DNA of 64,000 nucleotides. Source: Escherichia phage VTCCBPA_322. The stretch is taken from sequence record PP989839.1. One strand, 5' to 3'. A program made the translations under genes and the position numbers. Positions 7,774 to 64,000 of the stretch are shown here, piece after piece. Every line of letters starts with the position of its first letter. The stretch's first letter is position 1. The notes under the pieces were generated by a model. That model worked only from the letters and a program-made list of their open reading frames with translations, had not been told where the DNA came from and searched no databases.

Positions 7774-8118
7774 ATGAGTAAAGAATCAACAATCGCTGGA
7801 CTGGAACATCGACTGGAAGCTGCTAAAGGTGCAGTTGCACATGCAGAAGATGTACGTAAACTTCTGGAGAATCCACTGTTCCGTAAAGTAATTCTTCGCC
7901 AGTTCTGTGTGGAAGATTGTGCACGTTACGTGCAGGAGTCTGGTGACCCACTGCTTGAACCTAATAACCGTGCAGATGCACTGAATATGGCTCAAGCTGC
8001 TGGTCACTTACGTCGTTGGCTCGACCTCGCCATTCGTATGGGCGAAAACGAAGCTGATGTTATTCTTCAGGTAGAAGAAGAACTCGATGCAGTTCGTGCT
8101 GAACCTGAAGACGAATAA
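7774..8118 (+). CDS. hypothetical head-module protein
   Basis: ATG at 7774; 114 aa acidic protein between portal and scaffold-like genes. Confidence 0.5.
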   Translation: MSKESTIAGLEHRLEAAKGAVAHAEDVRKLLENPLFRKVILRQFCVEDCARYVQESGDPLLEPNNRADALNMAQAAGHLRRWLDLAIRMGENEADVILQVEEELDAVRAEPEDE

Positions 8119-10644: not shown

Positions 10645-11286
10645 ATGAACATGAGCATTAACGATAAACCGACCACTGACGTAGAAGTGAACGTACAGGG
10701 CAACGAAGATACCGTTAACGATATTGCAATGCCTAGCGAACTTGAAGTTCTTAAGCAACGTGCAACGTTGATGAATATCAAGTTCTCTAACAACATCTCC
10801 GTTGAAAAACTTCGTGAGAAAATTGAAGCAGCACAAGTAAAAGATGAACCAGTAGTAGAAGAAGCTGCTGTTAATCCTCTGGGTGAAAAACAGGAAGCTG
10901 GCGTTAAGAAGATGACTCTGGGTCAGAAGATTCGTGCAGAACAGACTCGACTGATTCGTGTACGTATCCAGAACCTTGACCCTAAGAAGAAAGACCTGCC
11001 TGGTGAGATTATCACCGTAGCTAACGAATATATGGGTACTGTACGTAAGTTTGTTCCATTCGGTGAAGTAACTGACAATGGTTATCACATTCCGTACTGT
11101 ATCTACGAGTTCCTTAAAGAGCGTAAGTTCATCAACATTACAACCCGTAAGGGTAAGAATGGCTTACCGGATATTCGTGCAACTGAAGCACGAGAGTTCT
11201 CCATTGAGGTACTGCCTCCGTTGACTGAAGCAGAATTGGCTCAACTGGCTCAGGCACAGATTGCTGCTGGTAGCCTGAACGATTAA
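10645..11286 (+). CDS. hypothetical virion protein
   Basis: ATG with AGGAAA RBS; 213 aa; followed by terminator. Confidence 0.5.
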   Translation: MNMSINDKPTTDVEVNVQGNEDTVNDIAMPSELEVLKQRATLMNIKFSNNISVEKLREKIEAAQVKDEPVVEEAAVNPLGEKQEAGVKKMTLGQKIRAEQTRLIRVRIQNLDPKKKDLPGEIITVANEYMGTVRKFVPFGEVTDNGYHIPYCIYEFLKERKFINITTRKGKNGLPDIRATEAREFSIEVLPPLTEAELAQLAQAQIAAGSLND

Positions 11287-17345: not shown

Positions 17346-17383
17346 TTCCTATATACGATATAAGTTTGAACAGGAAACATGCT

Positions 17384-23300: not shown

Positions 23301-26300
23301 ACGTTGCTAACCAAGTTCTGGCTACCAACTTAGATGATCGTATGCGTGTGCCAATGAGCATCTATGCTCCTTCACAGGCAGGCGTTGCAGGTATTCCATT
23401 TATGACCATTGGTACTGGCGATGGCATGATGATGCAGACCCTTTCTACTATGAAAGGTGCTCCGAAGAATACCCTGAAAATCTTTGATGGTATGAACATT
23501 GGTATCGACAACATCACTGATGCAAGTCGTAAAGCTAACGAGGCTGTATACACTTCCTGGCAGGGTAACCCTATCAAGAATGTCTACGACTCCTTCTCTA
23601 AGTTCATGAAGAATGTAGACTTCAGCAAACTGTCTGATGAAACCAAACAGGCTATCGCTAAATCTGCTCTGGAATATGACCAGCGTGAAGGTGCTACCGA
23701 TGACCTGTTACGTGTTGGTGCTGAACAGATTGAACGTAATCTGCGCAACATTGCTCTGGGTGTGGATATTCGCCACAAAGTAATGAACCAGGTACAGACT
23801 ACTGTTGACCAGATGGCTGCTGTAGGTGCTCCTTATGTGAACAACGGTAAAATCTCTCTGGAAGGTCTGACTGTAGACCAGCAAGTAGCTAAGCTGAACG
23901 AACTGTTTGATGCTGAGTTAAACAAGCGTCGTGATGCAGTACGTGCTGCTAAAGCAGAACCAGTGAAAGAAGTACCAGCAATGGAACAGGTTGGTCGTGT
24001 ACTGAAGTCTGGTGTACGTCTGCTGTCTAATACTGCTATCTCTAAGCTGGCTAAAGAGATGTCTCCGGAACAGCAAGCGGTACTGAAAGAAGTACAGAAA
24101 TCCCTTGCTGCTAAAGACTACAAAGTTGTTTATGGTACTCCTGCTCAATTAGATGCTTATGCTATTGAGAAGAATATTACTCGCCCAGCACCAGAAGATA
24201 TTGAAGCTGCTGAAGCAGGTAATGCATACGGCTGGACTAACTTTGATGATAAGACTATCTACTTAGTTACCCCTTCCTTGGAGACTCTGGTTCATGAATT
24301 GGTACATGCTTCTACTTTCGAATCTGTACTGGCTCATTATGAAGGTACTCCAAATGAAGCAGTCCAAAATATTGAAGACTTAATGAATCAGTTCCGTACT
24401 CTGGATGTTAAGGATGAATCTCCGGCAGTACGCGAAGCATATGCAGATGCTCTTAATACCATTAATGGTCATTTGTCTAATGGCTTCATTGAACCAGCAA
24501 TGGCTAAAGCTGCTGCACTTAACGAGTACATGGCATGGGGTTTAACTAACCGTGAACTAATTAGCAAGCAGAAGAAAACTACTGCACTGAAGACTATGGT
24601 TCAGGCTGTGTATGAAGCAATCAAGCGTCTGGTATTCGGACGTAAGAAAGCTCCCGCTAATGCAGATGATATGTTCTCTGGTTTACTATTTAACTCTGCT
24701 GTAGTTATGCGAGGACAAGCTCCTACTGCTGCTGTAGCCAAGGATACTACTCTGTTCCATAACAAAGCATACGGTGACAATACTCGTCTGGAAGAGCTAG
24801 GGAAAACCTTCGATAAACTGATTACAGACTACATTGGTTCAGAACCAGTACAACAAGTAATTCGTAAGGGTAAATTCTCTGATGCAGTAGTGAATGCAAC
24901 TAAAGTAACCCGTGATGTTCAGGCTCATGGCTTCACTATGAATATGCAGGAACAGCGTCTATTCACTAACATCGTTGCTGCTCTGGCTACTGAAGCTGCC
25001 ATTAGTCCTGCTGCCCTGGCTCGTGCACAGGAATACTATACGCATGTTACTAAGAACCTGACCGTTGAATCGTTCATGGCTGACCCGGATAGTACTAACC
25101 CTGCTGACCGTTACTATGCTCAACAGAAGTTCGATACCATTATGGGTGCTAACAATATTGAGTTTGATGCACAGGGCCGTTCTTCCTTACTGCCTACCTT
25201 TGTTGGTCTGGCAATGGTAAGTGAAGAGGTACGTAAAGTACTGGCAGACATTCCTGTTATGAAAGCAGATAAGCAATCCGGTAATACAGTTGATGCAATG
25301 CTGACTAACATTGGTACTGCTGCAATGGCTAGTCTGAATGCTCGTGTAGCGGGTGATACTAAGGCTACCAATGTACAGGAAGGTATGGATGCACTGGCTC
25401 AGACAATCATGCAGACGAGTCTCAATGCACAGTCCTTCTATGATTCCGTTGCTACTCCTAGTGGTAATGCTATTGACCGTGCTAACCAGTATCTGGTGGA
25501 TTCTATTGATGCATTGTCTACCCGTGCTTTAGAAGGTGCTCGTGAAGTTGCAGCTAATACCAAGAACCCGTTGGTTAAAGGTGCTGCTCATGCTGCACAA
25601 CTAATAGCTGCTATTGCTACAGAGAAGAATGGTGAAATCGTAGCTGAAGGCGTTATGGCTGCAATGAACCAGGGTAAAGTGTGGCAACCTTTCCATGACC
25701 TGGTTAATGACTTAACAGGCCGTACTAAGAGCAATGCTTCTGTATACGATTTGATTAAGGCAGTACGTGCACAGGTACAAGCTGACCGTCAACAGTTCCG
25801 TGAACATTTGCCTACCACTATCGCATCTAAGTTCAGCCGTAAGCTGACTAATGATGAATGGAAAGCAATGCATACTGGTATGGGTAAAACTGACTTAGCT
25901 GTTTTACGTGACACTATGTCTCTGGCTGAAATTCGTGACTTGCTGACTGACCAAAAGATTGTTGACCGTGAAGTGAATAAGCTGGAAGCAGACTTACAGA
26001 AACAAGCTGGTCGTAACTGGCCTCTGATTAGCCGTAAATCTAAGCAACTAGCTCAGTACATGATTAACGGTACAGTTGGTAATAACCTGCTGCGTAATGC
26101 TACAGCAATCTCTCGTATGCTGGGTGAACGTCAGGCTGCACGTTCTACTGTAGATGTAGCTCAACTGGATAAACTGATTACTCTGTATGCACTGGAAGCA
26201 ATGAGTAAGACTGACCGTGAGATGTTATCTTCACTGGCTCAATCAGAAGTTGATGGAATTGATTTTGCTACTTCTTACCTGGTTGGTCAGCGTAAAGATG

Positions 26301-28097: not shown

Positions 28098-28128
28098 TGA
28101 AAAAGCCCCTCTAATGAGGGGCTTTACT
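28098..28128. terminator. bidirectional intrinsic terminator at convergence of late (+) and early/middle (-) transcription
   Basis: AAAGCCCCTC-TAAT-GAGGGGCTTT 10-bp stem; U-run on minus strand (TTTTTCATTT), weaker on plus. Confidence 0.75.
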
Positions 28129-28136
28129 CTTAGAAG

Positions 28137-28367
28137 TTAAGGTGTTTTCCACATTTTAGGCTTACGCCCTTCACTTGGAAATTTACCAGTCTCCTTAATC
28201 TTTCGTAGTGTTTCTTCAGATGGGAACCACAGGAATGTGAAGTAAAGCTTCTTAGCTACGTAACGAGTTACTCCTAGTTTCTCTGCGATTTCATCGAATG
28301 AATATGTACGAACGGTATTGTTGAGAATGGCTTCACGAACAACAGAGGTAATAGATACTTGTGTCAT
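28137..28367 (-). CDS. small protein with HTH-like segment
   Basis: ATG at 28367 with AGGAAA RBS; 76 aa; SFDEIAEKLGVTRYVAKK resembles helix-turn-helix. Confidence 0.5.
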   Translation of the reverse strand: MTQVSITSVVREAILNNTVRTYSFDEIAEKLGVTRYVAKKLYFTFLWFPSEETLRKIKETGKFPSEGRKPKMWKTP

Positions 28368-28386
28368 GCTATTTTCCTATAAATGA

Positions 28387-28420
28387 GAAAGCCCTCACTA
28401 GGAGGGCTTGTTTTGTTTTG
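28387..28420 (+). terminator. hairpin with plus-strand T-run inside minus-strand module (antisense-blocking or bidirectional terminator)
   Basis: GAAAGCCCTC-ACTA-GGAGGGCTT followed by GTTTTGTTTT on plus strand. Confidence 0.4.
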
Positions 28421-28489
28421 GCTTCTTGAGCCTTACCACTTGTCTGGTAGTTCAGTACCTTTCGGTAAAAACTACCTTACATCTTTGAA

Positions 28490-28870
28490 TCAGATTGTAC
28501 AACCACCACCATCACAGGTGTTGTTTTCTGCAAAGGAAGCTAGAGCCTTAGCTGTCTCCTCTTTCTCATGCAGTGCCTGACGTAGCAGGTAACCCTCTAA
28601 TTCCCAAATCTTATTGAATGCATTTTCATATGCATACTGACGGCCTTTCTTCTCATCATAGATAGTTGGGTCTACACAGGCAGATACACCTTCAACTTTG
28701 AAGCCGTTTTCTAGGATGATAATGCAATGAGTTGTCAGACCCAGGTTAGCTAAATCATCTGCCGGGAGTGCAGATGGATCAACGAATGCAGACTTCACTG
28801 CATCAGCACCATTGAAATAGTAGACGCTCTTAATCTTAGCTTCGATTGCTTCTTTACTTACTGTTGCCAT
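28490..28870 (-). CDS. hypothetical protein
   Basis: ATG at 28870 with GAGG RBS (track start 28882 also ATG); 126 aa; preceded by terminator 28931-28968. Confidence 0.5.
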   Translation of the reverse strand: MATVSKEAIEAKIKSVYYFNGADAVKSAFVDPSALPADDLANLGLTTHCIIILENGFKVEGVSACVDPTIYDEKKGRQYAYENAFNKIWELEGYLLRQALHEKEETAKALASFAENNTCDGGGCTI

Positions 28871-28930
28871 TATTAGCCTCATAGAGTGGTTTTAGTGTGT
28901 GCTTAAACATGATTACGTTTATTAATACTC

Positions 28931-28968
28931 AAATAAAAAAGTCCCCCAGAGTGACGGCTCCAGGGGAC
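28931..28968 (-). terminator. intrinsic terminator ending the non-coding / tRNA-like transcription unit
   Basis: minus strand AAGTCCCC...GGGGACTT stem followed by TTTTTTATTT. Confidence 0.65.
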
Positions 28969-29752
28969 TTAGTACTATTTACCCATAGCTGGGAGGCTTT
29001 TGGTTCTTACCACGAAGACAGTCCACGCTGACTAGGCTTGGGATTGATAGTCCCGTTCCTGTGGTAATTACTCAGGCTAGGATTTAAGGAGTTCCTATTC
29101 TCCAGCGAAATTCCCGTCGAGGGGAATAACAATACAATAGCAGCCACTGGACTGTCTTACCAGTGTTGTCTTTAGAGTGCTGTGCAATCAGGACTATGTT
29201 ACTGCTAAATAGGTGAGTCATGCCAGGCTCTAACTGGCTCCTTCTTCGCAATCCTTACATACCCCTACATAATTATTGCGTTAAGCTTTTTTGTTTAAGT
29301 TTAAGTGAAGGCGTTCTTGCTGACTCATAATTAGGTTGGGCGTTTGACGAATGACTAGTTCGTTACTACCCGTTTGCCATAAGTACCTGGCGACTTTGGT
29401 TTGAGGTGGGAGTCCGAGTCCTGTACAGCCTTACCGTTCACACATTGGCAGCGTATCTAGAATAGCACTTCCGGCAACTGGATTTAACTGTTACACCTCA
29501 AATCTGGTAGGGGCGTCCAGAAGTCTCATCTGGTACTTACGCCGTCGTATGGTTACGACTTACCCCCATTGTTAGTTGCTCGGCTCACCCCCTCGACTAA
29601 AGTGACCTTTGAGGGGCTACGCTACACTATGTGTTTCATCCCATTACAGAGAATCATCAGGCGTATTAGTTGGTCACCCCGGATACCTACTTACCGAGCA
29701 TTGGTATCGTATGACTCTTCCAATTAGAAGTAGCACTGTTGCAGTCGTCACT

Positions 29753-42161: not shown

Positions 42162-42185
42162 TAAAAAACCCTCCGTAGAGGGTTA
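42162..42185 (-). terminator. intrinsic terminator after MazG-like gene
   Basis: minus strand AACCCTC-TACG-GAGGGTT followed by TTTTTTAC. Confidence 0.6.
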
Positions 42186-47884: not shown

Positions 47885-48191
47885 TTCGTTTCTCCGCCAT
47901 TGCTTGTAGTACAAATACTACAGTGTCTGAAATCTGGTCATCAGTAGGCTCAACTAATTGACCATCCTTGTCATACATTTCTTTCAGAAGTGCATTAAGT
48001 TCAGCCATACCAGCCAATACCATTTCTTTGCTTGGCTCCAACCATAACTTACGTTCCTCTGCTAGTGCAGCAATGCACATACACAGAGAGGCAATGTTTG
48101 CAGGACATGCAAGAATATCTCCAGTAAGAGCTACTTCACTTAGGGGTACTGCTTTGCCTGTTTCAGACAAAATTACTTCAGGATTAATCAT
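47877..48191 (-). CDS. hypothetical protein
   Basis: ATG at 48191 with GGAG RBS; track start 48239 would overlap upstream gene by 56 nt. Confidence 0.45.
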   Translation of the reverse strand: MINPEVILSETGKAVPLSEVALTGDILACPANIASLCMCIAALAEERKLWLEPSKEMVLAGMAELNALLKEMYDKDGQLVEPTDDQISDTVVFVLQAMAEKRNG

Positions 48192-48426
48192 GTATTTGCT
48201 CCAGGTTATGGGCAGGAATAGGGAAGCATGGATAGTCACCAGTAGGGTCCAGTGTCACTGATACATGTAGTGTATTTGTCATTTGGGTTAACATAAGAGC
48301 AGCATTGAAATCATCCTGAATACAGGCATATACAATGTCACCCTTCTCACCTTCACACATTAGTGGGGTGTCTTTAATGCGGTATTTAGCAGGCATATGT
48401 CCTCCTAAAAGAGTTAATAGAATCAA
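48184..48426 (-). CDS. small hypothetical protein
   Basis: 80 aa; follows terminator 48424-48450. Confidence 0.45.
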   Translation of the reverse strand: MILLTLLGGHMPAKYRIKDTPLMCEGEKGDIVYACIQDDFNAALMLTQMTNTLHVSVTLDPTGDYPCFPIPAHNLEQIHD

Positions 48427-48450
48427 AAAAAGACCTCCCGGAGGAGGTCT
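48424..48450 (-). terminator. intrinsic terminator
   Basis: minus strand AAGACCTCC-TCCG-GGAGGTCTT followed by TTTTTTTGA. Confidence 0.7.
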
Positions 48451-48455
48451 TAGGT

Positions 48456-48692
48456 TTACTTACTATTTTCTTCAATGAAACGTCTCATACGCTCCTTTGC
48501 TTCATCATGCTCCTTAATGGCTACATAGTCTCGTGCATAATAATATGCACACCATAAGCCAAGAACGCATGCAGAGAAGCGAGCCACTACGAAGAACATT
48601 TCCTCCAGGCTTTGAGCATTGTGCAATGAAAATACAAATTCCAGAACCAGGATGATACTTATAATCATTGCTTGTATAGCTAGTCGTCTCAT
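48456..48692 (-). CDS. small membrane protein (two predicted TM helices)
   Basis: 78 aa; hydrophobic segments IISIILVLEFVF and ACVLGLWCAYYYA. Confidence 0.5.
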   Translation of the reverse strand: MRRLAIQAMIISIILVLEFVFSLHNAQSLEEMFFVVARFSACVLGLWCAYYYARDYVAIKEHDEAKERMRRFIEENSK

Positions 48693-49633
48693 TCAGTAAT
48701 AGTCTCACCGGGGATTAACTTACGGAATTGGATAAAGTGAAGTAGGTTACCTGAGTACAGATTCCCTTCTTTATCCATGGATGTAACACCTTGTTCCCAT
48801 GTAGCCGGGTTCATGTTATTCACACACTTTTCACCAAGATTCATAGGTGTAGCCTGATGTTCAGTAGGTGAAGCATGAATAGGCTGTTTCTCTACCAACT
48901 TAGCAAACAGGTCAAGGTCATCGCTGATAGTGGATGGCTTACCTTCGAAGTTGTTATAAGAAGCACGGGCACAACGAGCAGCAGAGACTTTAAGCAGCAA
49001 GCCTAAAATTTCTTCATTACTTGGTTCATCACGAGTAATTCGCTGATATTTGCAATGATTGTAAGCATTAGCACAATCAACACTGCGAATATAAGGCAGA
49101 TGCCAGTCACCTTTCTTGAGCTTTTGCGGAACAGATTCTTCATGAGCCTTCTTCATGGCCTGGGCCAGTAAACGAATTTCTGGTTGGGCATCCTCATGGT
49201 CACGTAAGCCATAAAAGTTAGCCCAACTTGTTGAAGTTACCACGACACGGATATGTGTGAATGGTTCCAAGATACGGTTAACAATCTGCTTATGTACTTG
49301 CCCACGTCGTAACTGTTCAGCATACACAGCAGCAGCAGATGCAGCGTTATCCCAGATAAACTTAGCATCCTCAATTTCCATAGGAGTGAGTTCTTCTTCT
49401 GCTTGCATACCCTTCTGGTTCTTGCCCCAGTGACTGGGCATCACTGGTTCATTACGAACTTGTTCGATGAACTTAGCTGTTGGAATAGCACGACTGCTTG
49501 AAGCATTACGGTTAAATACACGGTGGGTCATAAACTCACTGTGGATGAATCGGGGATAAACCAATTCAAAGGTAGTAATACGAGTTCCTGTTTCTGGGTG
49601 AACGGAATCTGCAATGACAGTTGCCTTAATCAT
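48689..49633 (-). CDS. thyX: FAD-dependent thymidylate synthase (ThyX)-like
   Basis: 314 aa; ThyX-like signature THRVFNRNASSSR (RHR-x7-S type); overlapping start/stop with neighbours. Confidence 0.5.
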   Translation of the reverse strand: MIKATVIADSVHPETGTRITTFELVYPRFIHSEFMTHRVFNRNASSSRAIPTAKFIEQVRNEPVMPSHWGKNQKGMQAEEELTPMEIEDAKFIWDNAASAAAVYAEQLRRGQVHKQIVNRILEPFTHIRVVVTSTSWANFYGLRDHEDAQPEIRLLAQAMKKAHEESVPQKLKKGDWHLPYIRSVDCANAYNHCKYQRITRDEPSNEEILGLLLKVSAARCARASYNNFEGKPSTISDDLDLFAKLVEKQPIHASPTEHQATPMNLGEKCVNNMNPATWEQGVTSMDKEGNLYSGNLLHFIQFRKLIPGETITE

Positions 49634-50076
49634 TAGAATGACCTTAGATAGTTGGTAATACCACTACGGTTTTCTGTAATTTTCTTAACCTGAACGTATA
49701 CCAGTTTAAACTCACTACGAGGTAGTTCCTGTAATACTGCTATACCTTCAGTAAGAGCCACAGAACACGCTACAGCGGTTTCTTTTTTAAAGGAGTACAA
49801 GTCTTCGTACATGATGGCTTCATACTCCCTGCGGAGCATACAGAGAGCATCTCTTGCCTTATCACTTACTTCTTGTGAACCAGCAGACATAGCTAAACTG
49901 TATATGATAAAGACTTGTTCAAAAACAAAGTCCAATAATCTATCAGGATTGTTAGTCCCCATGAATAATTTTGTTGTGTAGGAACGAGCTTTACGGTTGA
50001 GTTCGTACTCATTCTCTATACCTTTATTATAAAGAACCGGATTTCGTTCCCTTTTCCGTAGGAATGGGATACGCAT
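49633..50076 (-). CDS. hypothetical protein
   Basis: 147 aa. Confidence 0.5.
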   Translation of the reverse strand: MRIPFLRKRERNPVLYNKGIENEYELNRKARSYTTKLFMGTNNPDRLLDFVFEQVFIIYSLAMSAGSQEVSDKARDALCMLRREYEAIMYEDLYSFKKETAVACSVALTEGIAVLQELPRSEFKLVYVQVKKITENRSGITNYLRSF

Positions 50077-50456
50077 TAGTATTTACTACCTCTTCTATAC
50101 CAAGGGTAATGATGGGTAGTACTTTTACCTTTGAATACATCCTTAGTACGTGGATTCTTTTGTATTTGAGCCAGGTAAAGATGCATATCATCTCCACACG
50201 GGCTAAGCCAGAACTTATCTATGATTCGGTCTACCTTAGATTTCAGATGAGGTTCCGGAGGAATGTATGAAGGGAAAGGTCTGCTAATAGTCCATCCTTT
50301 CTGAACAAGAGCCTGCATTGTCGTGTAAAGATCTAATGCAATATCATTATCTACTTGATCATGGATAGTTTTACCTAAAGTAAGCATTGCAGTTTGTTCC
50401 AGCTTACCGAAGTCCAGTCCTTGCAGGATAGACTTACCATTTCGTCTGTTTGACAT
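50076..50456 (-). CDS. hypothetical protein
   Basis: ATG at 50456; track start 50558 would read through terminator 50470-50499. Confidence 0.45.
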   Translation of the reverse strand: MSNRRNGKSILQGLDFGKLEQTAMLTLGKTIHDQVDNDIALDLYTTMQALVQKGWTISRPFPSYIPPEPHLKSKVDRIIDKFWLSPCGDDMHLYLAQIQKNPRTKDVFKGKSTTHHYPWYRRGSKY

Positions 50457-50469
50457 AAGAGTACCTGTA

Positions 50470-50499
50470 AATAAAAAAGCCCACGGGTTAAGTGGGCTT
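50470..50499 (-). terminator. intrinsic terminator
   Basis: minus strand AAGCCCAC-loop-GTGGGCTT followed by TTTTTTATTT. Confidence 0.7.
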
Positions 50500-50573
50500 G
50501 GGTTAGGAGATGGATAAGCAATGAGCTGGAAGTAACTTCCACAAGCACCACTATGCAATGATGCTTAGGTTAG

Positions 50574-50816
50574 TTACTCTGCTTTACTACCACCATTGGT
50601 TTGAACAACAGTTACGTTTGTAACTTGGTTCTGACCTTTGTTGGACAGTGACCAAATCAGTGCTACTACCCAGAAGACTAAAGACCAGCCTAATACAATA
50701 TTGAGCACACCAATACCCCACTTGGAGGCATGGCCTCGTGCAAAAGCAATGATAGTAGGGATAAGGTATACAGCTAGTATGAATAAGAAAACAAGGATTG
50801 CTGCTAAAGATTCCAT
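50574..50816 (-). CDS. superinfection-immunity (Imm-like) small membrane protein
   Basis: ATG at 50816 with AGGAA RBS (track start 50852 is GTG); motif PTIIAFARGHASKWGIGVLNIVLGWSLVFWVVALIWS matches Imm-family pattern. Confidence 0.6.
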   Translation of the reverse strand: MESLAAILVFLFILAVYLIPTIIAFARGHASKWGIGVLNIVLGWSLVFWVVALIWSLSNKGQNQVTNVTVVQTNGGSKAE

Positions 50817-50889
50817 GATGGTTCCTATGTGAGGTTGAGTTAGTTTCTTCACAAATAGCCCAACTATGCTGGGCTATTTAGGCAGCTAC

Positions 50890-51090
50890 TTACTCTGCGT
50901 CAGAGACAGCAGTCAAAGCTTTACGGATGTAACCACGCACAGAACGGTAACTTTCTTTTACAGATACTGTTCGCCCATCAATCAGATGAATTACAGCACC
51001 GACTGATGTCTCATCTACGTCTACTACGTTAGTTGCAACAATAGTTTTACGCACGGTACTTCCAACAGGAGTTACTTGAAATACTGACAT
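50890..51090 (-). CDS. small hypothetical protein
   Basis: 66 aa. Confidence 0.4.
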   Translation of the reverse strand: MSVFQVTPVGSTVRKTIVATNVVDVDETSVGAVIHLIDGRTVSVKESYRSVRGYIRKALTAVSDAE

Positions 51091-51120
51091 GTTGTTTCCT
51101 TAATTAAGCTGGATAGCCTT

Positions 51121-51627
51121 TTATTTTGAAGGTCTAGCAGCTACTGGTTGGTTTTCCTGGTTCTGATACTTGCCATTGTAATTAGCAGGTTCCTGAACCA
51201 GATGAAATAATACTTGAGCTATCCCAGCACCAGCCGGGATATGTAGTTTTTTACGACCATGATAGACCAGTTCAAGGGTAAGATACCCTTTCCATCCTGG
51301 TTCTATTACGGTATTAAACACTGATAATGCACGTCTTGCCCACGTAGACTTATCGTGAACGATAGCTACACAGGAAGGAGACATGTTGAACTTCTCAATT
51401 GCTGAAGCCAAGGTGAACTTACCGAGATGGTGTGATACTTGATTCCCATCAACGACTTTCACCATTGGAATCAACCCAAATAAGCGATAGAAGGTAATAT
51501 CTTGTTTGATACGAATATCGTAACCAGCTTCACCCAATCCATAGCTTACACCATGCTCGGATACCTTGCGGTCTGGGATATCCAGCAACTGAGATGAACG
51601 GTATAGAGAATTACCATTAACAACCAT
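51121..51627 (-). CDS. dCTP deaminase / dUTPase-family protein
   Basis: 168 aa; trimeric dUTPase-superfamily-like motifs VIEPGWKGYLTLEL and GAGIAQVLF. Confidence 0.5.
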   Translation of the reverse strand: MVVNGNSLYRSSQLLDIPDRKVSEHGVSYGLGEAGYDIRIKQDITFYRLFGLIPMVKVVDGNQVSHHLGKFTLASAIEKFNMSPSCVAIVHDKSTWARRALSVFNTVIEPGWKGYLTLELVYHGRKKLHIPAGAGIAQVLFHLVQEPANYNGKYQNQENQPVAARPSK

Positions 51628-52802
51628 TATTTCATTCCTTTAGGGATATGAACTACCTCCCCAAAAGGTACGGTAGCATTGGGATTATTCAGAACACACC
51701 AGATGATAGGAATATCAAATGGTAATTCTTCCATAGGATGAACATACATATCGGAGAATATGATTGCAGCAGTTGGTTTATTCTTAATAATCCAATCACG
51801 TACTGGCACAAGGCTTGTACCACCACGACCAGTAATCTTAATCTCTTCAAAAGTATCTTCTTCAGTGATGTCTATTTCTTCTTGGATAATATCGTCGAAG
51901 GTAATTAGGGACATCTTCTTAGGATTGAACTGGCTCTTAACGTAGGCAACCTCTGAGTTAAATCGCAGAGAGTCTGCACTACTAATAGAACCAGATACAT
52001 CCTCAAAGTAGGCCAAGTGTCGTAAACGTCCTTCATCATCTTCCAGTGAAGGTAGATAAATGTCAGTGTAACGACGGTTAGGTCTGGCCCACGTATAATG
52101 AGTATCATCAATGTCGGTAAAGAAGTTCATCAGAACTTCCTGCCATGGAACCACTGGTTTGAGGAATTGGGTAATAACCTCTTCCATACGACCAGCACCT
52201 TTACCAGGCAATGTTCCACCAGCCATTTTCTGGCTCTGCATTGCACGTACTACGTTGTTGACGACAGCACCCTGGGACTGCCCCGAAGTGGGGGATTTCA
52301 TGTCGCCAGCAAGACCTGCTCCAGCACCCCCTGACGGCTTCTGCCTTTTCTGAGGGTTCTTCATCAAGTCATCGTAGATGTCTTCTTCGACCCACCCTTT
52401 GTATTGTGGGTCTTTGCAAATACCTTCATCAATGCCAGTGAACTTGTAACCATCTTCTTCTAACTGAAGGTTAATGAAGTGGTCACATGCCTGGTTCCAG
52501 ATTTCTGGGTCACGGCTTCCACGACGAATATCGTGTAGGTATGCCACATGCCAAAGTTCATGCATTAATACTGTTTTTCTTGCATCTGGGCACATCCAGA
52601 TGAAGAAATCAGGATTGAAATGGAGTTCTATCCCATCAGTACATGCAGTGGGACAATCCTCACGTTTCCATGAGAACTTAAGACTACATAGTAATGAACC
52701 AAAGAACGCAGCAGACTTGCCTAGGAAAGCCTGAGCTTGAATACGGTCATACTCACGCATGAGTTGTTCATCACTAAGGGAGTGCTGAGGAAATTGGTTC
52801 AT
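51627..52802 (-). CDS. VWA-domain protein with N-terminal HExxH metallopeptidase-like motif (N4 gp25-like)
   Basis: 391 aa; HELWH motif; C-terminal region consistent with von Willebrand A fold; immediately downstream of MoxR-like ATPase. Confidence 0.5.
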   Translation of the reverse strand: MNQFPQHSLSDEQLMREYDRIQAQAFLGKSAAFFGSLLCSLKFSWKREDCPTACTDGIELHFNPDFFIWMCPDARKTVLMHELWHVAYLHDIRRGSRDPEIWNQACDHFINLQLEEDGYKFTGIDEGICKDPQYKGWVEEDIYDDLMKNPQKRQKPSGGAGAGLAGDMKSPTSGQSQGAVVNNVVRAMQSQKMAGGTLPGKGAGRMEEVITQFLKPVVPWQEVLMNFFTDIDDTHYTWARPNRRYTDIYLPSLEDDEGRLRHLAYFEDVSGSISSADSLRFNSEVAYVKSQFNPKKMSLITFDDIIQEEIDITEEDTFEEIKITGRGGTSLVPVRDWIIKNKPTAAIIFSDMYVHPMEELPFDIPIIWCVLNNPNATVPFGEVVHIPKGMK

Positions 52803-52806
52803 TGTT

Positions 52807-53859
52807 TTATCCGTGAAGGTAACGAGAGATATTAGCAGCAGCCTTACGCCATTCAGGGGTAGCCTGAAGTTCTGGCAATGCTCTACCTACTGTACGGAAG
52901 TACAGAATCTTATGAGTGAACGTTTTAAATCGTTCAATGTACTGAAGAACATCAGCGAAGTTCTCTTCAGTAGTTTTGTTAGCCAGATGGTTAACGGTAG
53001 CCCAGCACAGGTTGTTATCTTCTGGTAGTGCACAGCCCAAGGGGTCTTTTACTACCTTTTCAATCGTAATCATACGATTGTATACCTGAGTAAATTGAAC
53101 AAACTCTGTAGCCTTACCAGCAGTAACGTGCCCTGCATAGTAGATAGAATCTTCGTCAGGCAGAGCACCTTCAGGGCGGTTCTTAAGGTCTTTGTTAACA
53201 AAGTCCCAGGTACGAGGGCAACAGAACGTTTTATTCTTATGTGCTGGGTCAAAGTCATGCAGATAACCGGGGTTAGCATGTAAGAATGCAACCAGACGTT
53301 CATCCCATTCTTGAGGAATCATTACGTCTTCAACAAAAATGTCGAAGTTGAGTTCCATTTCGAAGTGGACAACACGAGACTGCATTGCAGTACCCAGTGG
53401 GTTAACGATGGCACGGTCAGTAGCTTTGTTACCTGCACATATAATCATCACATTAGGATGAAGTTTTTTCTGACCAGTCATACGGTCTAAAATCAGTTTA
53501 TATGCAGCAGCTACTACTTCTTTTCTGGCTGAGTTGAACTCATCAAGGAACAGGAGCCAACCATTATATCCTTCCGGTACTTTATCTCCCTCAATAGGGA
53601 ATAAGTCAGCGAATGGGATAAACTCTGCACGGTCACCATTACGGAATGGTAGGCCAGACAAGTCTTCCGGGGCAGAAGTAGACAGACGATGGTCTATCAG
53701 CTTCATACCAAATTCTTCTGCAACAGAGCGAATGATTGCAGATTTACCCATACCTGGTGATGAAGTCAGGAACGGTACGTTACCTGCTTGCAGGGCACGG
53801 ATAATAAAGTTACGGGCCTGACGTGTATTACATACGGTCAGTGAGTCAATGCTCGCCAT
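52807..53859 (-). CDS. MoxR-like AAA+ ATPase (N4 gp24-like)
   Basis: 350 aa; Walker A SPGMGKS, Walker B LLFLDEFN, sensor region ICAGN. Confidence 0.75.
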   Translation of the reverse strand: MASIDSLTVCNTRQARNFIIRALQAGNVPFLTSSPGMGKSAIIRSVAEEFGMKLIDHRLSTSAPEDLSGLPFRNGDRAEFIPFADLFPIEGDKVPEGYNGWLLFLDEFNSARKEVVAAAYKLILDRMTGQKKLHPNVMIICAGNKATDRAIVNPLGTAMQSRVVHFEMELNFDIFVEDVMIPQEWDERLVAFLHANPGYLHDFDPAHKNKTFCCPRTWDFVNKDLKNRPEGALPDEDSIYYAGHVTAGKATEFVQFTQVYNRMITIEKVVKDPLGCALPEDNNLCWATVNHLANKTTEENFADVLQYIERFKTFTHKILYFRTVGRALPELQATPEWRKAAANISRYLHG

Positions 53860-53893
53860 TTACTTACTCTCCTAAAGTTAATGGAATTACTAA

Positions 53894-54220
53894 TTAAGAT
53901 TTAATACAAGGGTATGCTGTATCAATTGCCAGCAGAACCATGTCTGATGGTACTTTTACTGCATTAACCTTTCGGTCGTACAGAATAATAGTGGCTACTT
54001 TGTCAAAGACATTTCCTAACTTTAAACTATCTGGTACGCAGTTTTTGCCTGCTTCTACACCCATAGTAACCATGCCCATGAAGTAACCTTGGTTCACAAA
54101 GCTATCATTCCCGGCCTTATAAGCAGCAGCAGCTTCCAATAAGGTTTCACGGCTGGATGCTTGAGCATTGAATGACAGAGCTGATAAAGCTACTACAGCA
54201 ACAGCAATTAAAGTTTTCAT
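53894..54220 (-). CDS. secreted / periplasmic small protein
   Basis: N-terminal signal peptide MKTLIAVAVVALSALSFNAQA. Confidence 0.5.
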   Translation of the reverse strand: MKTLIAVAVVALSALSFNAQASSRETLLEAAAAYKAGNDSFVNQGYFMGMVTMGVEAGKNCVPDSLKLGNVFDKVATIILYDRKVNAVKVPSDMVLLAIDTAYPCIKS

Positions 54221-54406
54221 TTAGTTACCTTTTAACTCGTTGAGTTGAAGTACTCCGGTAGGGGTTAATGACCACCCAAGACCAGCGTTGAACTGTACTA
54301 GGCCCAGTTTCTTAAGAGACTGTGCGGTTTTGTTATTACGGTTGCTGGTGGCAGAGCCACCTTGAACCATACGAAGGAAGATTGCTTGGGACTGAGTTAA
54401 TTTCAA
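54221..54406 (-). CDS. small hypothetical protein
   Basis: 61 aa. Confidence 0.4.
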   Translation of the reverse strand: MKLTQSQAIFLRMVQGGSATSNRNNKTAQSLKKLGLVQFNAGLGWSLTPTGVLQLNELKGN

Positions 54407-54612
54407 AGGTAATATCCTTCCAGGTTTATTGGTGTTACAAATGTACTAGCTGATAGACAGAAAGACTTACCAGTTTCTACAGCAACAGCAGCAGGCTTAC
54501 CATCGGGTAAGTGAATCTTTAAACATACTGACTGGTTATATATAAAACCACAGGCAGGTTGCACATCACCGAAGGTCACTTCATTGCTTTCAGAACGATT
54601 CGTTACTTTCAT
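54403..54612 (-). CDS. small hypothetical protein
   Basis: 69 aa; ATGA overlap. Confidence 0.4.
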   Translation of the reverse strand: MKVTNRSESNEVTFGDVQPACGFIYNQSVCLKIHLPDGKPAAVAVETGKSFCLSASTFVTPINLEGYYL

Positions 54613-54797
54613 TTCTTCTCCGGTACGAACTGCATTACACAGTTTTGATTACGAGGGATATTCAATTCACATTCATGCTTGAGGGTTTGCGTTACAGAAT
54701 TTGGAGTAGAACCAAAGTAGGTATTAGAAATAGCTACGAATCCTGCACCTATCAAACCACCTAGTAAGAATGAGAAAAATGCAATCTCTTTATACAT
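54609..54797 (-). CDS. small membrane protein
   Basis: 62 aa with one TM (FFSFLLGGLIGAGFVAI). Confidence 0.4.
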   Translation of the reverse strand: MYKEIAFFSFLLGGLIGAGFVAISNTYFGSTPNSVTQTLKHECELNIPRNQNCVMQFVPEKK

Positions 54798-54821
54798 TTC
54801 CTGGCTCCAGGATGTTTAAGT

Positions 54822-54853
54822 CAAAAAAAGACCTCCCTTCAATAGGGAGGTCA
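54822..54853 (-). terminator. intrinsic terminator
   Basis: minus strand GACCTCCC-TATTGAA-GGGAGGTC followed by TTTTTTTGA. Confidence 0.7.
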
Positions 54854-54902
54854 AACTTGAGGGTTTCATTTCAGGGTTTATAACCCCAAACAAAGGATAC
54901 CC

Positions 54903-55736
54903 TTATTCTGCAACAGTAACAGCGATGGTTACATCGACCGTACCGTTGGTAACTACTACAGAAGTATCTTCGCCAGCAGCTACCGGTTTAACCGTCAGTA
55001 CGTTACCAGCAATGGTAGCTGTAGCACGAGCAGAATCTGGGGCAGTTTTAATAGACAATGTACCAGCAGAAGAACCAACAGGCATAGCAGCAATGGTTAC
55101 AGTCTTACCGGCAGCAGTATCATCAGCAACAGACAGAGCCAGTGAATCAGGAGTAGCTACCAGTGAGCTTGCTTCGTAGTAGCCTACAGCCAGCAGAGAC
55201 TCATCTTCTACAGTGGTTCCATTAGCATCAGTAACAATTACTTTATAAGTACCGGCAGAAGCAGCTGTTACGTTGTTAAGGGTCAACGTTGCAGTAGCAG
55301 CGGATGCGTTATCACCAGAATCAATATCGGCGAATACTGCACCGGCAGTATCGGCTTTAAATTGCCATTTATAAGTAAATGGTGCTTTACCACCTGCTAC
55401 ATCAACATGCCAGTTAATGTCTTCGCCTTCGATAGCAGAGACTACACGAGGCAGTTTAGTAGCAATAGTCAGTCGTGGAGTAGCTTTCATATCAATAGAG
55501 ATGGCTTGCATATCCACAATGTTGTTAGGCCAGAAGCCTTCTTCAGCAGGGTTTTTAGCAGAACGTTTATACAGCAGATCACGTACACCGTGAAAGATAA
55601 CTAAGCTATCTGGGTAGGTAGCATCTGGATGTACAAAAGTACCTACTTCTACTGAACCACCCGGGATAGAACCACTGGCATCTAGTACAGTTGCAACATT
55701 GGTGGTTTTGTTAAAACCTACTTTTAAAGTTGGCAT
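54903..55736 (-). CDS. Ig-like domain capsid decoration protein (N4 gp17-like)
   Basis: ATG at 55736 with GAGGAAA RBS, downstream of terminator 55784-55813 (track start 55865 reads through it); Ala/Thr/Val-rich beta-strand repeats. Confidence 0.5.
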   Translation of the reverse strand: MPTLKVGFNKTTNVATVLDASGSIPGGSVEVGTFVHPDATYPDSLVIFHGVRDLLYKRSAKNPAEEGFWPNNIVDMQAISIDMKATPRLTIATKLPRVVSAIEGEDINWHVDVAGGKAPFTYKWQFKADTAGAVFADIDSGDNASAATATLTLNNVTAASAGTYKVIVTDANGTTVEDESLLAVGYYEASSLVATPDSLALSVADDTAAGKTVTIAAMPVGSSAGTLSIKTAPDSARATATIAGNVLTVKPVAAGEDTSVVVTNGTVDVTIAVTVAE

Positions 55737-55783
55737 ATGAATTTCCTCATAAGTAAATAGCAGGATTAGTATACATGACATGT

Positions 55784-55813
55784 AAAAAAATAAACCCTCC
55801 GTTAAGAGGGTTA
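55784..55813 (-). terminator. intrinsic terminator
   Basis: minus strand AACCCTC-loop-GAGGGTT followed by TATTTTTTTAC. Confidence 0.65.
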
Positions 55814-56008
55814 GTTGTTTACACAGTAGATAGCAAAAGCTATCCATCCTGCCATTACAAAGCATCCTAGTGAATATGCCCCATAGTAGCAGTAAGCAAA
55901 CTTAGACTTGTGAGCACGAACTATCGTAGCCAGAACCAGTACAGATAAAACTATCAGTATCAGCTGAAAGATTACTTCAAAATTGATAAGCATAGTTGCT
56001 ACCTCCAA
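55811..56008 (-). CDS. small membrane protein
   Basis: 65 aa, two hydrophobic helices. Confidence 0.45.
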   Translation of the reverse strand: MEVATMLINFEVIFQLILIVLSVLVLATIVRAHKSKFAYCYYGAYSLGCFVMAGWIAFAIYCVNN

Positions 56009-56009
56009 G

Positions 56010-56046
56010 CAAAAAATAAAGCCCCACTCCCGAAGGAATGAGGCTA
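56010..56046 (-). terminator. intrinsic terminator after RNAPII operon
   Basis: imperfect hairpin AGCCTCATTCC-TTCG-GGAGTGGGGCT followed by TTTATTTTTTG. Confidence 0.5.
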
Positions 56047-56051
56047 GTTTA

Positions 56052-57269
56052 TTAACTTAATGCATAATCTGTTTCAAGGATGTCCTGCCAGAGGCTGTCA
56101 TCCAGCTTACCAGCAGAGAACTCTTGTCCCAGTACCTGAGACAGGATGAAGCCCAGTAGGTCACTCTTCGCAATGTCAGACAGAATCTGATTGTACTGAC
56201 GACGCAAGTCATTACCGTAGTTAGGATGGCAACGGAAGCAGTCATGTACAGTCATTACAGGGAATGGTTTCTTAGGCATGGTATTGAGCATAGTCATGAT
56301 TACATCTGTATCAACCAATGCAATCGTTTCTGAGTCCAGATAGTCAAAGATACGAGTAGACAGGAAGCCCGACTTCTCATAGCTGGTCCACAGTGTATTA
56401 ACCATTTCATAGTTATCATCAGAGCCTACCATGTAGTCACTGGTTCCCTCACAAAGGGACTTAACATAATTCACCTGGTTCATGTCGAAGTTGCAACGAC
56501 GCAGCATCTCACGTACCACCATTCCATCAATAGAGTGAGTGATGTTAGCAGAGAGCATACGGGTCTTCTCTTCAGTACCCTGAACCATACGAGTGATATC
56601 GAAGGGTTTACCTAAGAAGTTAATAGTCTGTACTTCTTGAACCATGACCTTAATGACAGCATGGAAGTTGTCAGGCAATACCCATATGTAACGGTTAGCA
56701 TCCGGGTTACCACATTGCAGTAAGAACTTGTTAAGTGCCCAAGGACCACTTGCAACTGTTTCCATTACATTCTCAAAAGTCTTGAGACGAATACCTTCAC
56801 CGAATACTTCTTTAGGCTTGGCTTCTGAACCGTAGAATGCGGTCATAACTGCCTGCTTGGTATCACTACGTTTAATACGAGATGCTTCACCAAGGATGTC
56901 CAGCATCTTGTGATAGATAACTGTATAAGCATCACGACGTAATGGCTTACCATTCTCACCCATGTAGTTAACTACGTTACATAGTTCAGCAGCAGAACGG
57001 TCACCAGTCAGGCAGGCCAGTAACTGCAAGCCGGATGATGTAGCATCCAGAGCTACGGCATAACCGATAGGCTTACCTGCTTTCATATCTTTCCATGCGT
57101 TTATACCAGCATAGAACAGTGCAGATTCTTCAGCTTCATCTACCAGATTAAGCAGGTTAGCTTCGTTCTCATCGAACCAGGCAATACGTTCATCCCAGGT
57201 CTTTTTATCCAGACCATAGTTATTGGCAATATCTACTTTCAGGTATTCTTTAGCAGTTAACAGTTGCAT
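56052..57269 (-). CDS. phage RNA polymerase II, catalytic (large) subunit, T7-like (N4 gp16-like)
   Basis: 405 aa; T7 RNAP motif A-like GYAVALDATSSGLQ and motif C-like VMTVHDCFRC. Confidence 0.8.
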   Translation of the reverse strand: MQLLTAKEYLKVDIANNYGLDKKTWDERIAWFDENEANLLNLVDEAEESALFYAGINAWKDMKAGKPIGYAVALDATSSGLQLLACLTGDRSAAELCNVVNYMGENGKPLRRDAYTVIYHKMLDILGEASRIKRSDTKQAVMTAFYGSEAKPKEVFGEGIRLKTFENVMETVASGPWALNKFLLQCGNPDANRYIWVLPDNFHAVIKVMVQEVQTINFLGKPFDITRMVQGTEEKTRMLSANITHSIDGMVVREMLRRCNFDMNQVNYVKSLCEGTSDYMVGSDDNYEMVNTLWTSYEKSGFLSTRIFDYLDSETIALVDTDVIMTMLNTMPKKPFPVMTVHDCFRCHPNYGNDLRRQYNQILSDIAKSDLLGFILSQVLGQEFSAGKLDDSLWQDILETDYALS

Positions 57270-58637: not shown

Positions 58638-58659
58638 TCCTTAAGCTGCGGAGCAGCTT
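58638..58659 (-). promoter_or_regulatory. conserved hairpin motif TCCTTAA-GCT-GCGGAGC-AGC; candidate virion-RNAP early promoter upstream of RNAPII operon
   Basis: 7-bp stem AAGCTGC/GCAGCTT with 3-nt purine loop GGA on plus (template) strand; shares core with sites at 63123 and 63897. Confidence 0.45.
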
Positions 58660-62488: not shown

Positions 62489-62592
62489 AATGGTTACTCC
62501 TTCATCTAATATAAATCTATATCTATCTGGTTACTGTTTCAGTACCCTTCGTCTAAAGATACTCAAAAAGTAGAAATAGCTTATCGTCTAGT

Positions 62593-62624
62593 TAAAAATA
62601 AAAGACTCCCCAAAGGGAGTCTTA
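62593..62624 (-). terminator. intrinsic terminator
   Basis: minus strand AAGACTCCC-TTTG-GGGAGTCTT followed by TTATTTTTAAC. Confidence 0.7.
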
Positions 62625-62631
62625 TGGTTGA

Positions 62632-63114
62632 TTAGAAAGTCAGTTTACGAGCATATTTATTCTCGTCTGCTGGGATGTCAGCAGCCTCTGCTTTCACACG
62701 GCGAAGTTGAACTTGCAGGTTAATGATACCTTCTTCACCTGGTTCCAGGTTCTGAGCATATTCGATTAACTGTTCCAGTAAGTCGTTCTGTGCACAACGC
62801 ATAGCACGGAAGTCAGCATTGCTGCTATTAGTAGGCAGCGGTTCCTGAGTATCCAGTGGAATACCTGTAGGCAGTGAGATGAATTTCTCATCATCAGAAC
62901 CTTCATTAGCTACATAACCAATGTTCAGCCAGAACTGAGCTTTTGGTTTATCAGCTTTAGCAGTAGAAGTAGCAGCAGCGTTAGATTGACCGAAAGTGAA
63001 TTTTTGAATAGACATTTTGTACTCTCCAGATAAATGATTGTTTGATTTATGGGTTTGTCCGTCGGTGACTAAACCCAAGAAAAGACTTAAGATTTCAATG
63101 ATTAGTGGATGCAT
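62632..63114 (-). CDS. acidic hypothetical early protein
   Basis: ATG at 63114 lies about 9 nt downstream of candidate promoter hairpin; alternative start at 63015 has GGAGAG RBS. Confidence 0.45.
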
Positions 63115-63122
63115 TTAAATCA

Positions 63123-63144
63123 TCCATAAGACGCGGAGCGTCTT
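63123..63144 (-). promoter_or_regulatory. conserved hairpin motif TCCATAA-GAC-GCGGAGC-GTC; candidate virion-RNAP early promoter
   Basis: 7-bp stem AAGACGC/GCGTCTT with GGA loop on plus strand; same core as 58638 and 63897. Confidence 0.45.
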
Positions 63145-63149
63145 GGTTT

Positions 63150-63896: not shown

Positions 63897-63916
63897 TCCA
63901 TAACATGCGGAGCATG
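63897..63916 (-). promoter_or_regulatory. conserved hairpin motif TCCATAA-CAT-GCGGAGC-ATG; candidate virion-RNAP early promoter for leftmost early gene
   Basis: 5-bp stem CATGC/GCATG with GGA loop on plus strand, about 40 nt upstream of start codon at 63860. Confidence 0.45.
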
Positions 63917-64000
63917 TGTAACGTGTAAGGTGGGGTAGGGTAGTGGCTACACCGTCAACATACCGGGGGGCTAGTTGAGTGTAAGGGTGTAGCCCCAGCC

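Follow-up and report, generated by a model that had tools for sequence, protein, structure and literature searches.

Three similar intrinsic terminators at conserved positions in a G7C-like coliphage genome

Three hairpins downstream of minus-strand genes

We analyzed a stretch of 64,000 nucleotides (nt) from Escherichia phage VTCCBPA_322 (PP989839.1; hereafter the window), in which three hairpins with closely similar stems, termed T1, T2, and T3, follow genes on the minus strand. An initial annotation had listed the three look-alike sites as a recurrent terminator module, at coordinates that ours reproduce to within 1 to 2 nt. In a megablast search, positions 48000-56000 match 86 phage records; the best matches belong to Gamaleyavirus (PBM-3 at 93%, then PGN829.1, PhAPEC7, ECBP1, Bp4, and G7C), and Moo19, KP8, and N4 match more weakly. 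By these similarities, we place the window among the G7C-like Gamaleyavirus coliphages of the N4 family. T1 follows ThyX, a homolog of G7C gp30, and a small homolog of gp30.1, which together (48456..49633) constitute a putative transcription unit ended by T1. T2 follows a homolog of gp17 and T3 a homolog of gp2 (Table 1). In N4, gp2 is a single-stranded DNA-binding cofactor of RNAPII; a Pfam scan of the gp2 homolog at 62632..63114 gave no family.

Each of the three sites folds into one clean hairpin (−15 to −20 kcal/mol, z −2.8 to −3.9) with a stem of 9 base pairs (bp), five or six of them G-C, and a loop of 4 to 5 nt. The computed RNA folding energies are −16 kcal/mol for T1 (z −2.8) and −15 kcal/mol for T3 (z −3.9), and for T2 −19.9 kcal/mol over the whole 49 nt (z −3.9) and −15.9 kcal/mol for the hairpin alone. 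A U-tract lies directly 3' of each stem, as an unbroken T7 in T1 and T2 and, when the two stem-closing T residues are included, as TTTTATTTTT in T3. The A-run that had been read on the plus strand is the T-tail of these minus-strand elements. The match between the stem sequences of T1 and T2 also held up, with the correction that the second arm of T1 on the plus strand is GGAGGTC, not GGGAGGTC.

All three hairpins are intergenic and oriented in the direction of the genes they follow, lying 4, 50, and 8 nt past the stop codons of the gp30.1, gp17, and gp2 homologs, respectively. The sites are already known in the sense that the GenBank records of relatives annotate them: SP5M has a "terminator" feature at the orthologues of T1, T2, and T3, and G7C has a "stem_loop" at that of T2 (9074-9096). 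Terminator-like sites are ≈3-fold enriched in this region (35 found versus 11.9±3.3 expected), Rfam gave no match at gathering score anywhere in the window, and a tRNA scan of the window found no tRNA genes. Because each site combines a GC-rich hairpin and a U-tract with a post-stop location, the direction of the genes, a position conserved across genera (see below), and annotation in relatives, we concur with the initial annotation in calling them terminators.

Table 1. Predicted features of the window
Feature	Coordinates	Strand	Sequence or basis
T1, intrinsic terminator	48423..48451	-	9-bp stem AAGACCTCC/GGAGGTCTT, loop TCCG, T-run then GA; hairpin 48451..48430, AAGACCTCC-TCCG-GGAGGTCTT, then TTTTTGATTC
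T2, intrinsic terminator	54820..54852	-	9-bp stem GACCTCCCT/AGGGAGGTC, loop ATTGA, T7 then GAC; hairpin 54852..54830, GACCTCCCT-ATTGA-AGGGAGGTC, then TTTTTTTGAC
T3, intrinsic terminator	62592..62623	-	9-bp stem AAGACTCCC/GGGAGTCTT, loop TTTG, tail TTATTTTTAA; hairpin 62623..62602, AAGACTCCC-TTTG-GGGAGTCTT, then TTATTTTTAA
gp30.1 homolog, small	48456-48692	-	Synteny with G7C gp30/gp30.1
ThyX (gp30 homolog)	48689-49633	-	Pfam Thy1, E=9e-13; synteny with G7C gp30
gp17 homolog (Hoc-like Ig-domain head decoration protein)	54903..55865	-	Annotation of relatives; weak Pfam Ig_3 match
gp2 homolog	62632..63114	-	Synteny and annotation in G7C, KP8, N4
RNAPII large subunit gene (gp16 homolog)	56052-57269	-	Pfam RNA_pol, T7-like RNA polymerase domain
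vRNAP gene	17366-28096	+	
vRNAP-type early promoter hairpin, upstream of gp2	63127-63145	-	CAAGACGC-TCC-GCGTCTTA on the coding strand
vRNAP-type early promoter hairpin, upstream of gp1	63903-63917	-	ACATGC-TCC-GCATGT
vRNAP-type early promoter hairpin, upstream of small open reading frame, gp15, and gp16	58643-58659	-	AAGCTGC-TCC-GCAGCTT
Terminator	42167..42184	-	AACCCTC-TACG-GAGGGTT; 3' arm identical over 9 nt to 55793-55812
Terminator, inside 5' part of gp17-homolog reading frame as called	55793..55812	-	AACCCTCT-TAAC-GGAGGGTT
Terminator after RNAPII large subunit gene	56020..56045	-	
Terminator	50477..50499	-	AAGCCCAC-TTAACCC-GTGGGCTT; stem kept in all relatives examined, out to N4 and KP8
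Terminator-cluster member	28103-28124		
Terminator-cluster member	28389-28409		
Terminator-cluster member	28939-28970		13-bp stem, −21 kcal/mol
Tail broken by single A	62592-62601	-	
Tail broken by single A	56010-56019	-	
Tail broken by single A	55783-55792	-	
Tail broken by single A	50467-50476	-	
Tail broken by single A	28929-28938	-	

Likeness of the stems relative to other terminators

T1 and T2 have in common a 7-bp stem (GACCTCC/GGAGGTC), the T7, and the GA that follows it, which together make an exact match of 17 nt (TCAAAAAAAGACCTCCC on the plus strand). T3 differs from T1 at two of nine arm positions and so is, as described initially, a close variant of the same stem. Genome-wide dinucleotide shuffles lead one to expect 0.19 matches to the 17-mer with at most three mismatches, and as many as two matches turn up in 2 of 100 such shuffles, so that the 17-mer is unusual by this measure. 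Taken by itself, the 8-mer GACCTCCC does not stand out (3 found versus 1.13 expected).

A uniform home-made finder that demands perfect stems returned 15 strong terminator sites in the window, whose 5' arms are 43% C and mostly begin with A, AAG, or G. Two non-orthologous pairs among them have a common 7-mer stem, namely T1/T2 (GACCTCC) and the terminators at 42184 and 55812 (AACCCTC). For 15 terminators, the chance that one or more such pairs occur is 0.12 under a zero-order model, 0.10 under a within-arm shuffle, and 0.70 under a first-order Markov model, which is overfit; at the empirical rate of 0.41% per pair, taken from 114 terminators in unrelated phage contigs, it is ≈0.35. When the comparison is anchored at the stem base, six pairs fall within a Hamming distance of 2 over 9 nt, a number with P = 0.001 against random composition and P = 0.35 when the composition of each column is kept. 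No two terminators in the window are closer than 42184 and 55812, which have an identical 9-mer and are not among T1-T3.

The likeness of T1-T3 is thus not specific to them, since the position-specific null gives P = 0.35 and 42184/55812 are more alike than any of the three. The suggestion that their similarity exceeds expectation for such stems holds against random sequence and fails with terminators as the null. The terminators of the window have a common build as a class, and the mutual likeness of T1-T3 is what that build predicts. The source of the resemblance would be the way in which nearly all terminators of this phage are put together, in that an A or AAG precedes a 5' arm rich in C and a 3' arm rich in G leads into a T-run, and the remainder may be coincidence within a restricted sequence space. 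The lesson is that similarity between terminator stems should be judged against other terminators rather than against random sequence.

The initial annotation had favored a duplicated terminator cassette or a recognition element over independent hairpins. In the cassette version, T1 and T2, perhaps with T3, would descend from one duplicated terminator or be held identical by gene conversion. The 17-nt match of identical stem, T7, and GA speaks for this origin, as do the stems of T1 and T2 being identical already in Moo19 and the N4 orthologues being alike as well (GCCTCC and GCCCTCC). Copies of a cassette should, however, be more alike than other elements of the same class, and both the column shuffle (P = 0.35) and the closer 42184/55812 pair indicate that the likeness of T1 and T2 is within expectation for this phage's terminators. 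Copies should also have homology beyond the core, or recent counterparts at non-orthologous positions, and we found neither for T1-T3: the 141-nt windows around the three sites align with nothing in common outside the hairpin and T-run, and none of the 20 largest families in a repeat search of the window contains T1-T3.

The same stem is also found well beyond this phage group. At least 120 IMG/VR contigs contain the pattern GACCTCC-N3-9-GGAGGTCTTTTT, and for 110 among the 120 contigs listed no nucleotide similarity to the window could be detected; with further matches added, the contexts of GACCTCC/GGAGGTC plus a T-run in unrelated phages fall into at least 34 independent flank clusters. At these loci (L004-L123 and L139-L153), the stem often carries a UUCG loop, and two large families comprise 45 and 21 contigs. 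With every base fixed, as a 27-mer (AA, stem, TTCG, stem, T7), the element is found 33 times in IMG/VR, and versions with composition-matched permuted stems are found 1, 4, and 1 times. Once related contigs are collapsed, these counts become 4 flank clusters versus 1, 2, and 1, and one of the four is this phage's own group. We therefore rejected GACCTCC as a specially favored phage stem, its excess being gone after the collapse. GACCTCC recurs independently in phages with no demonstrable preference, which shows how readily one and the same stem can arise, or be kept, in their terminators.

The sequence of the stem invites a translational reading in which each element is a terminator and a ribosome-binding module at once, with the 3' arm serving as the Shine-Dalgarno sequence of the next gene and sequestered by the anti-Shine-Dalgarno-like ACCTCC. 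GGAGGT is a perfect Shine-Dalgarno sequence, and ACCTCC copies the 16S anti-Shine-Dalgarno; after T1 an in-frame TTG lies 7 nt past GGAGG, where G7C gp30.2 starts, and GGAGGTC-Tn-ATG is present in many of the unrelated phage matches. Yet the gene downstream of T1 has its own AGGAGGA and ATG (48396..48394), annotated in SP5M, and the TTG of N4 is not in the reading frame of gp31. Past T2, the TTG meets a stop at once (TTG ACT TAA). An ATG follows the T-run in 4 of 34 independent contexts, almost none of which opens a reading frame, and control terminators lacking GGAGG have an ATG just as often (15 of 60). With start codons and reading frames no more frequent than at control terminators, and with local genes that have a Shine-Dalgarno sequence and ATG of their own, we rejected this dual function, which strikes us as scarcely credible.

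The start of the gene downstream of T1 is itself ambiguous (48396-48426, minus strand). The in-frame TTG at which G7C begins gp30.2 falls within the terminator T-run, and the ATG annotated as the start in SP5M lies 30 nt downstream of it, behind its strong Shine-Dalgarno sequence; this ATG looks like the real start.

Orthologous terminators in related phages

The same finder was applied to SP5M, G7C, N4, Moo19, KP8, JZBo1, and twelve IMG/VR relatives recovered with gp17. Relatives as distant as N4 and KP8 have a terminator at each orthologous position, with stems that differ. In the T1 series, after ThyX, the stem is GACCTCC in Gamaleyavirus and Moo19, GCCTCC in N4, GACCCGC in KP8, and GACCCAC in JZBo1, and the tail is TTTTTTTGAT or a near variant throughout (GGT in several Gamaleyavirus loci, GAG in Moo19). 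The T2 series has GACCTCCC in most members, GGCCTCCC with loop TAT in contig L134, and a G·T variant in contig L132; its distant members are GCCCTCC-TAT in N4, after gp18, and TGCCCACC in KP8, and an upstream flank TC(C/T)TTTG is common to the series. The T3 series, after gp2, has orthologues in N4, KP8, Moo19, and G7C, with GACTCCC in all genera and GACTACC/GGTAGTC in N4. Its basal pair varies (A-T, G·T, G-C), and its tail TTTTATTTT(T)A is kept in all but N4. The tails of T1 (TTTTTTTGAT) and T3 (TTTTATTTTTA) are kept across genera even where the stems have changed.

Within each series, pairing is kept while the sequence drifts. Formal pair counts give two compensatory pairs in the T1 series and two in the T3 series, in which 93 to 96% of cells are paired versus 37 to 64% when the 3' partner is slid, and in the T2 series one pair is seen as A-T, G·T, and C-G and another as T-A versus A-T. 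The loops vary freely (TCCG, TTCG, and TACG at T1; ATTGA, AATAA, TAAAT, and TAT at T2). Selection at T1-T3 thus appears to act on pairing and not on sequence.

These series also bear on the cassette. Both the T1 and the T2 position hold terminators in N4 and KP8 with different stems, those of KP8 differing from each other as well (GACCCGC versus TGCCCACC), and the flank and tail signatures of T1 and T2 match their own orthologues rather than each other. In L132 and L134, T2 has drifted from A to G with T1 still GACCTCC in the same phages (in L132, and in L051 from the L134 contig); because the change at one site was not followed at the other, the evolution of T1 and T2 is not concerted. With a separate orthologue series for each hairpin, compensatory changes, no concert, and no flank homology, the proposal of a cassette or recognition element in place of independent hairpins is not supported. 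A recent duplication of a T1/T2 cassette is largely refuted, and we regard cassette copying or gene conversion as a very improbable source of the likeness.

The present neighborhood of T2 can be traced to a deletion. Moo19 and L129, a Gamaleyavirus contig, have an N4-type terminator, AGCCCTC-CTTGT-GAGGGCT, directly after gp17, and T2 comes ≈400 nt later, past a gp18 homolog in Moo19 and past a gp18-sized gap in L129 (loci compared for the interval from gp17 to T2: window 54853-54902, L129 10961-11420, Moo19 (L124) 10734-11190). N4 and Moo19 retain the post-gp17 terminator and gp18 between gp17 and the T2 orthologue; the window and most Gamaleyaviruses have neither this N4-type terminator nor gp18 (superinfection exclusion). 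Since T2 in Moo19 and L129 follows the gp18 homolog or the gp18-sized gap, T2 is the ancestral post-gp18 terminator, which came to adjoin gp17 when the block of gp17 terminator and gp18 was deleted.

The series likewise bear on the other possibility raised initially, a recognition element. In a sequence-specific form of this reading, the letters of GACCTCC/GGAGGTC would themselves be recognized, for instance by RNAPII or vRNAP in termination, by an RNA-binding protein, or by an RNase. Stems that are invariant within Gamaleyavirus and Moovirus while the loops vary, and the excess of exact 27-mers in the uncorrected counts from viral contigs, would both agree with such an element. That excess, however, vanishes once related contigs are collapsed, and the orthologues in N4, KP8, and JZBo1 have other sequences in which compensatory changes keep the pairing. 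Terminators of the same class have unrelated stems (AAGCCCAC, AACCCTC, AGCCTCATTCC), and the 50499-type and 42184-type stems are equally unchanged among relatives. We consider a recognition element extremely unlikely.

We conclude, with a probability of about 0.88, that T1-T3 are ordinary intrinsic terminators, separately inherited and conserved in position, and that their resemblance reflects a common build rather than the copying of a cassette. The structure, position, orthology, covariation, and non-homologous flanks of the three sites, together with the statistics, carry this conclusion directly, and each terminator would have been inherited at its own position since before N4, KP8, and Gamaleyavirus split. 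Several points weigh on the other side. The exact 17-nt identity of T1 and T2 is unusual by the genome-wide shuffle (2 of 100), the statistics come from only 15 terminators and a home-made finder restricted to perfect stems, and the raw 27-mer counts (33 versus 1, 4, and 1) resemble a preference. The stems of T1 and T2 are, moreover, unchanged across Gamaleyavirus and Moovirus, and a very old copying event or weak selection at the sequence level would formally be consistent with this; the stability is not exceptional, because stems of the 50499 and 42184 types have changed no more among relatives. Finally, termination and its efficiency at T1-T3 are what we infer from their sequences. On the whole, the three sites are a small, clean example of terminators long fixed in position whose stems turn over by compensatory change.

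Transcriptional setting and comparison with known systems

Three vRNAP-type early promoter hairpins lie on the minus strand (Table 1), each followed by T(T/A)A(T/A)GG. KP8 has four annotated "early promoter" features, to which the hairpin at 63127-63145 can be aligned, and these aligned promoters have an invariant GC-TCC-GC core, a covarying outer stem, and a downstream T-TGG; the SP5M promoter hairpin is a compensatory variant, GATGC/GCATC. A search for the motif (core plus T-TGG) found only 63898-63913, 63124-63139, and, with one mismatch, 58639-58654. Promoter hairpin, gp2, and T3 make a compact promoter-gene-terminator unit, an early unit that T3 closes, given that the promoter hairpin sits upstream of gp2. 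By analogy with N4, this unit would be read by the injected vRNAP. T2 and T1 come after the last of the early units, where N4 produces overlapping RNAPII transcripts.

T7-like RNA polymerases stop at class I signals made of a hairpin and a U-run, as bacterial RNA polymerase does. In the nascent RNA at T1-T3, the 9-bp GC-rich hairpin would form directly upstream of the U-run and destabilize the weak rU:dA hybrid, and the transcript would be released. T3 would in this way end the early unit read by vRNAP, and T2, after gp17, and T1, after ThyX and gp30.1, would punctuate middle transcription by RNAPII, with the polymerase at each site assigned from the N4 transcription programme, in which vRNAP and RNAPII are both T7-like (PMC4496689). 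In LUZ7, Drc, a functional analogue of gp2, accounts for up to 64% of phage transcripts (PMC9163698), a share that would fit a tightly bracketed, highly expressed gp2. Position-conserved terminators that allow read-through are numerous in N4-like phages (PMC9163698, PMC6027278). The next start codons are only 28 to 33 nt past the T-runs of T1 and T2, with no recognized promoter in between, and from this spacing we infer that both are leaky. Probably they stop transcription only in part and so tune how much downstream message is made relative to upstream message, as documented for LUZ7 terminators.

The hairpins or their AT-rich tails could conceivably double as promoters, either as vRNAP- or LUZ7-type hairpins or by overlap with an RNAPII promoter, with termination followed by re-initiation. 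LUZ7 middle promoters are GC-rich hairpins with 3- to 4-nt loops ≈15 bp upstream of the transcription start site (PMC9163698), N4 RNAPII uses an AT-rich minimal promoter from −7 to +2, and the tails TTTTTTTGAT and TTTTATTTTTA are kept across genera despite stem change. T1-T3, however, have neither the GC-TCC-GC core nor the 3-nt loop of the vRNAP promoters of this group, and published descriptions of N4-type RNAPII promoters are of sequence motifs rather than hairpins. Terminator function already explains the conserved U-tract, and a promoter at T1 or T2 would have to fit into the short interval before the next start codon. A promoter function of the hairpins or tails is on these grounds highly doubtful. 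Identity with vRNAP promoters in particular was rejected, the motif being absent and the loops 4 to 5 nt long. It is just as doubtful that hairpin and AT-rich tail (T7-GAT at T1, TTTTATTTTTA at T3) form sequence-tuned stop-and-restart signals for N4-type polymerases, in which the GACCTCC stem and tail would be recognized specifically, whether in termination by RNAPII or vRNAP or in re-initiation at an overlapping AT-rich RNAPII promoter; this too we hold to be highly improbable. In the accessible literature, we found no consensus for the N4 RNAPII middle promoters and only general statements on N4 vRNAP terminator sequences. Together, the three terminators and the three vRNAP-type promoter hairpins allow the early and middle transcription units to be mapped, which is of little import beyond annotation.

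Several other terminators of the window deserve mention. The non-orthologous elements at 42167-42184 and 55793-55812 have AACCCTC/GAGGGTT in common, and the last 9 nt of their 3' arms read CGGAGGGTT. The 55812-type stem is the most variable among relatives (AACCCTCT, AACCCTCC, AACCCACC, and AGCCACCC). The longest reading frame of the gp17 homolog (54903-55865) begins upstream of this terminator and encloses it; because the SP5M and G7C gp17 starts fall downstream of the 55812-type terminator, translation in the window probably begins at an ATG inside the frame as called. At 28100-28970, where the vRNAP gene converges with the minus-strand block, there is a cluster of strong terminators, some of them bidirectional. 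Moo19 and KP8 have tRNA clusters at the equivalent place, and the window has no tRNA genes. In many early and middle terminators, the T-run is broken by a single A (TTTTATTT-like).

In structure, T1-T3 do not differ from the rho-independent terminators of Escherichia coli and its phages, including the class I terminator Tphi of T7. They have the same GC-rich 7- to 9-bp stem with an immediate U-run, a 4- to 5-nt loop (UUCG in many orthologues), an upstream A-tract, and an intergenic, post-stop location on the coding strand. The difference would lie in the polymerases that are stopped, which from the N4 programme are presumably vRNAP at T3 and RNAPII at T1 and T2, not the host RNA polymerase. 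The vRNAP hairpin promoters of the N4 type are also short GC-rich inverted repeats in the early region, but these have a 3-nt loop, the invariant GC-TCC-GC, a downstream T-TGG, and no T-run, whereas T1-T3 have 4- to 5-nt loops, a T-run, and none of the promoter motifs.

The orthologous terminators of N4 (NC_008720) lie after gp2 (1079-1100), after gp18 (8023-8039), and after gp30 (14830-14850), in the same neighborhoods and with the same architecture and related tails. Their stems (AGGACTACC, GCCCTCC, and TTGCCTCC) differ by one or two compensated pairs or by an indel from those of the window, where T2 stands directly after gp17 and the block of gp17 terminator and gp18 is absent. The features annotated as "terminator" in SP5M (MT682708) and "stem_loop" in G7C (HQ259105) are the same three elements with identical or near-identical stems, and they differ from T1-T3 only in loop bases and in the length of the T-run.

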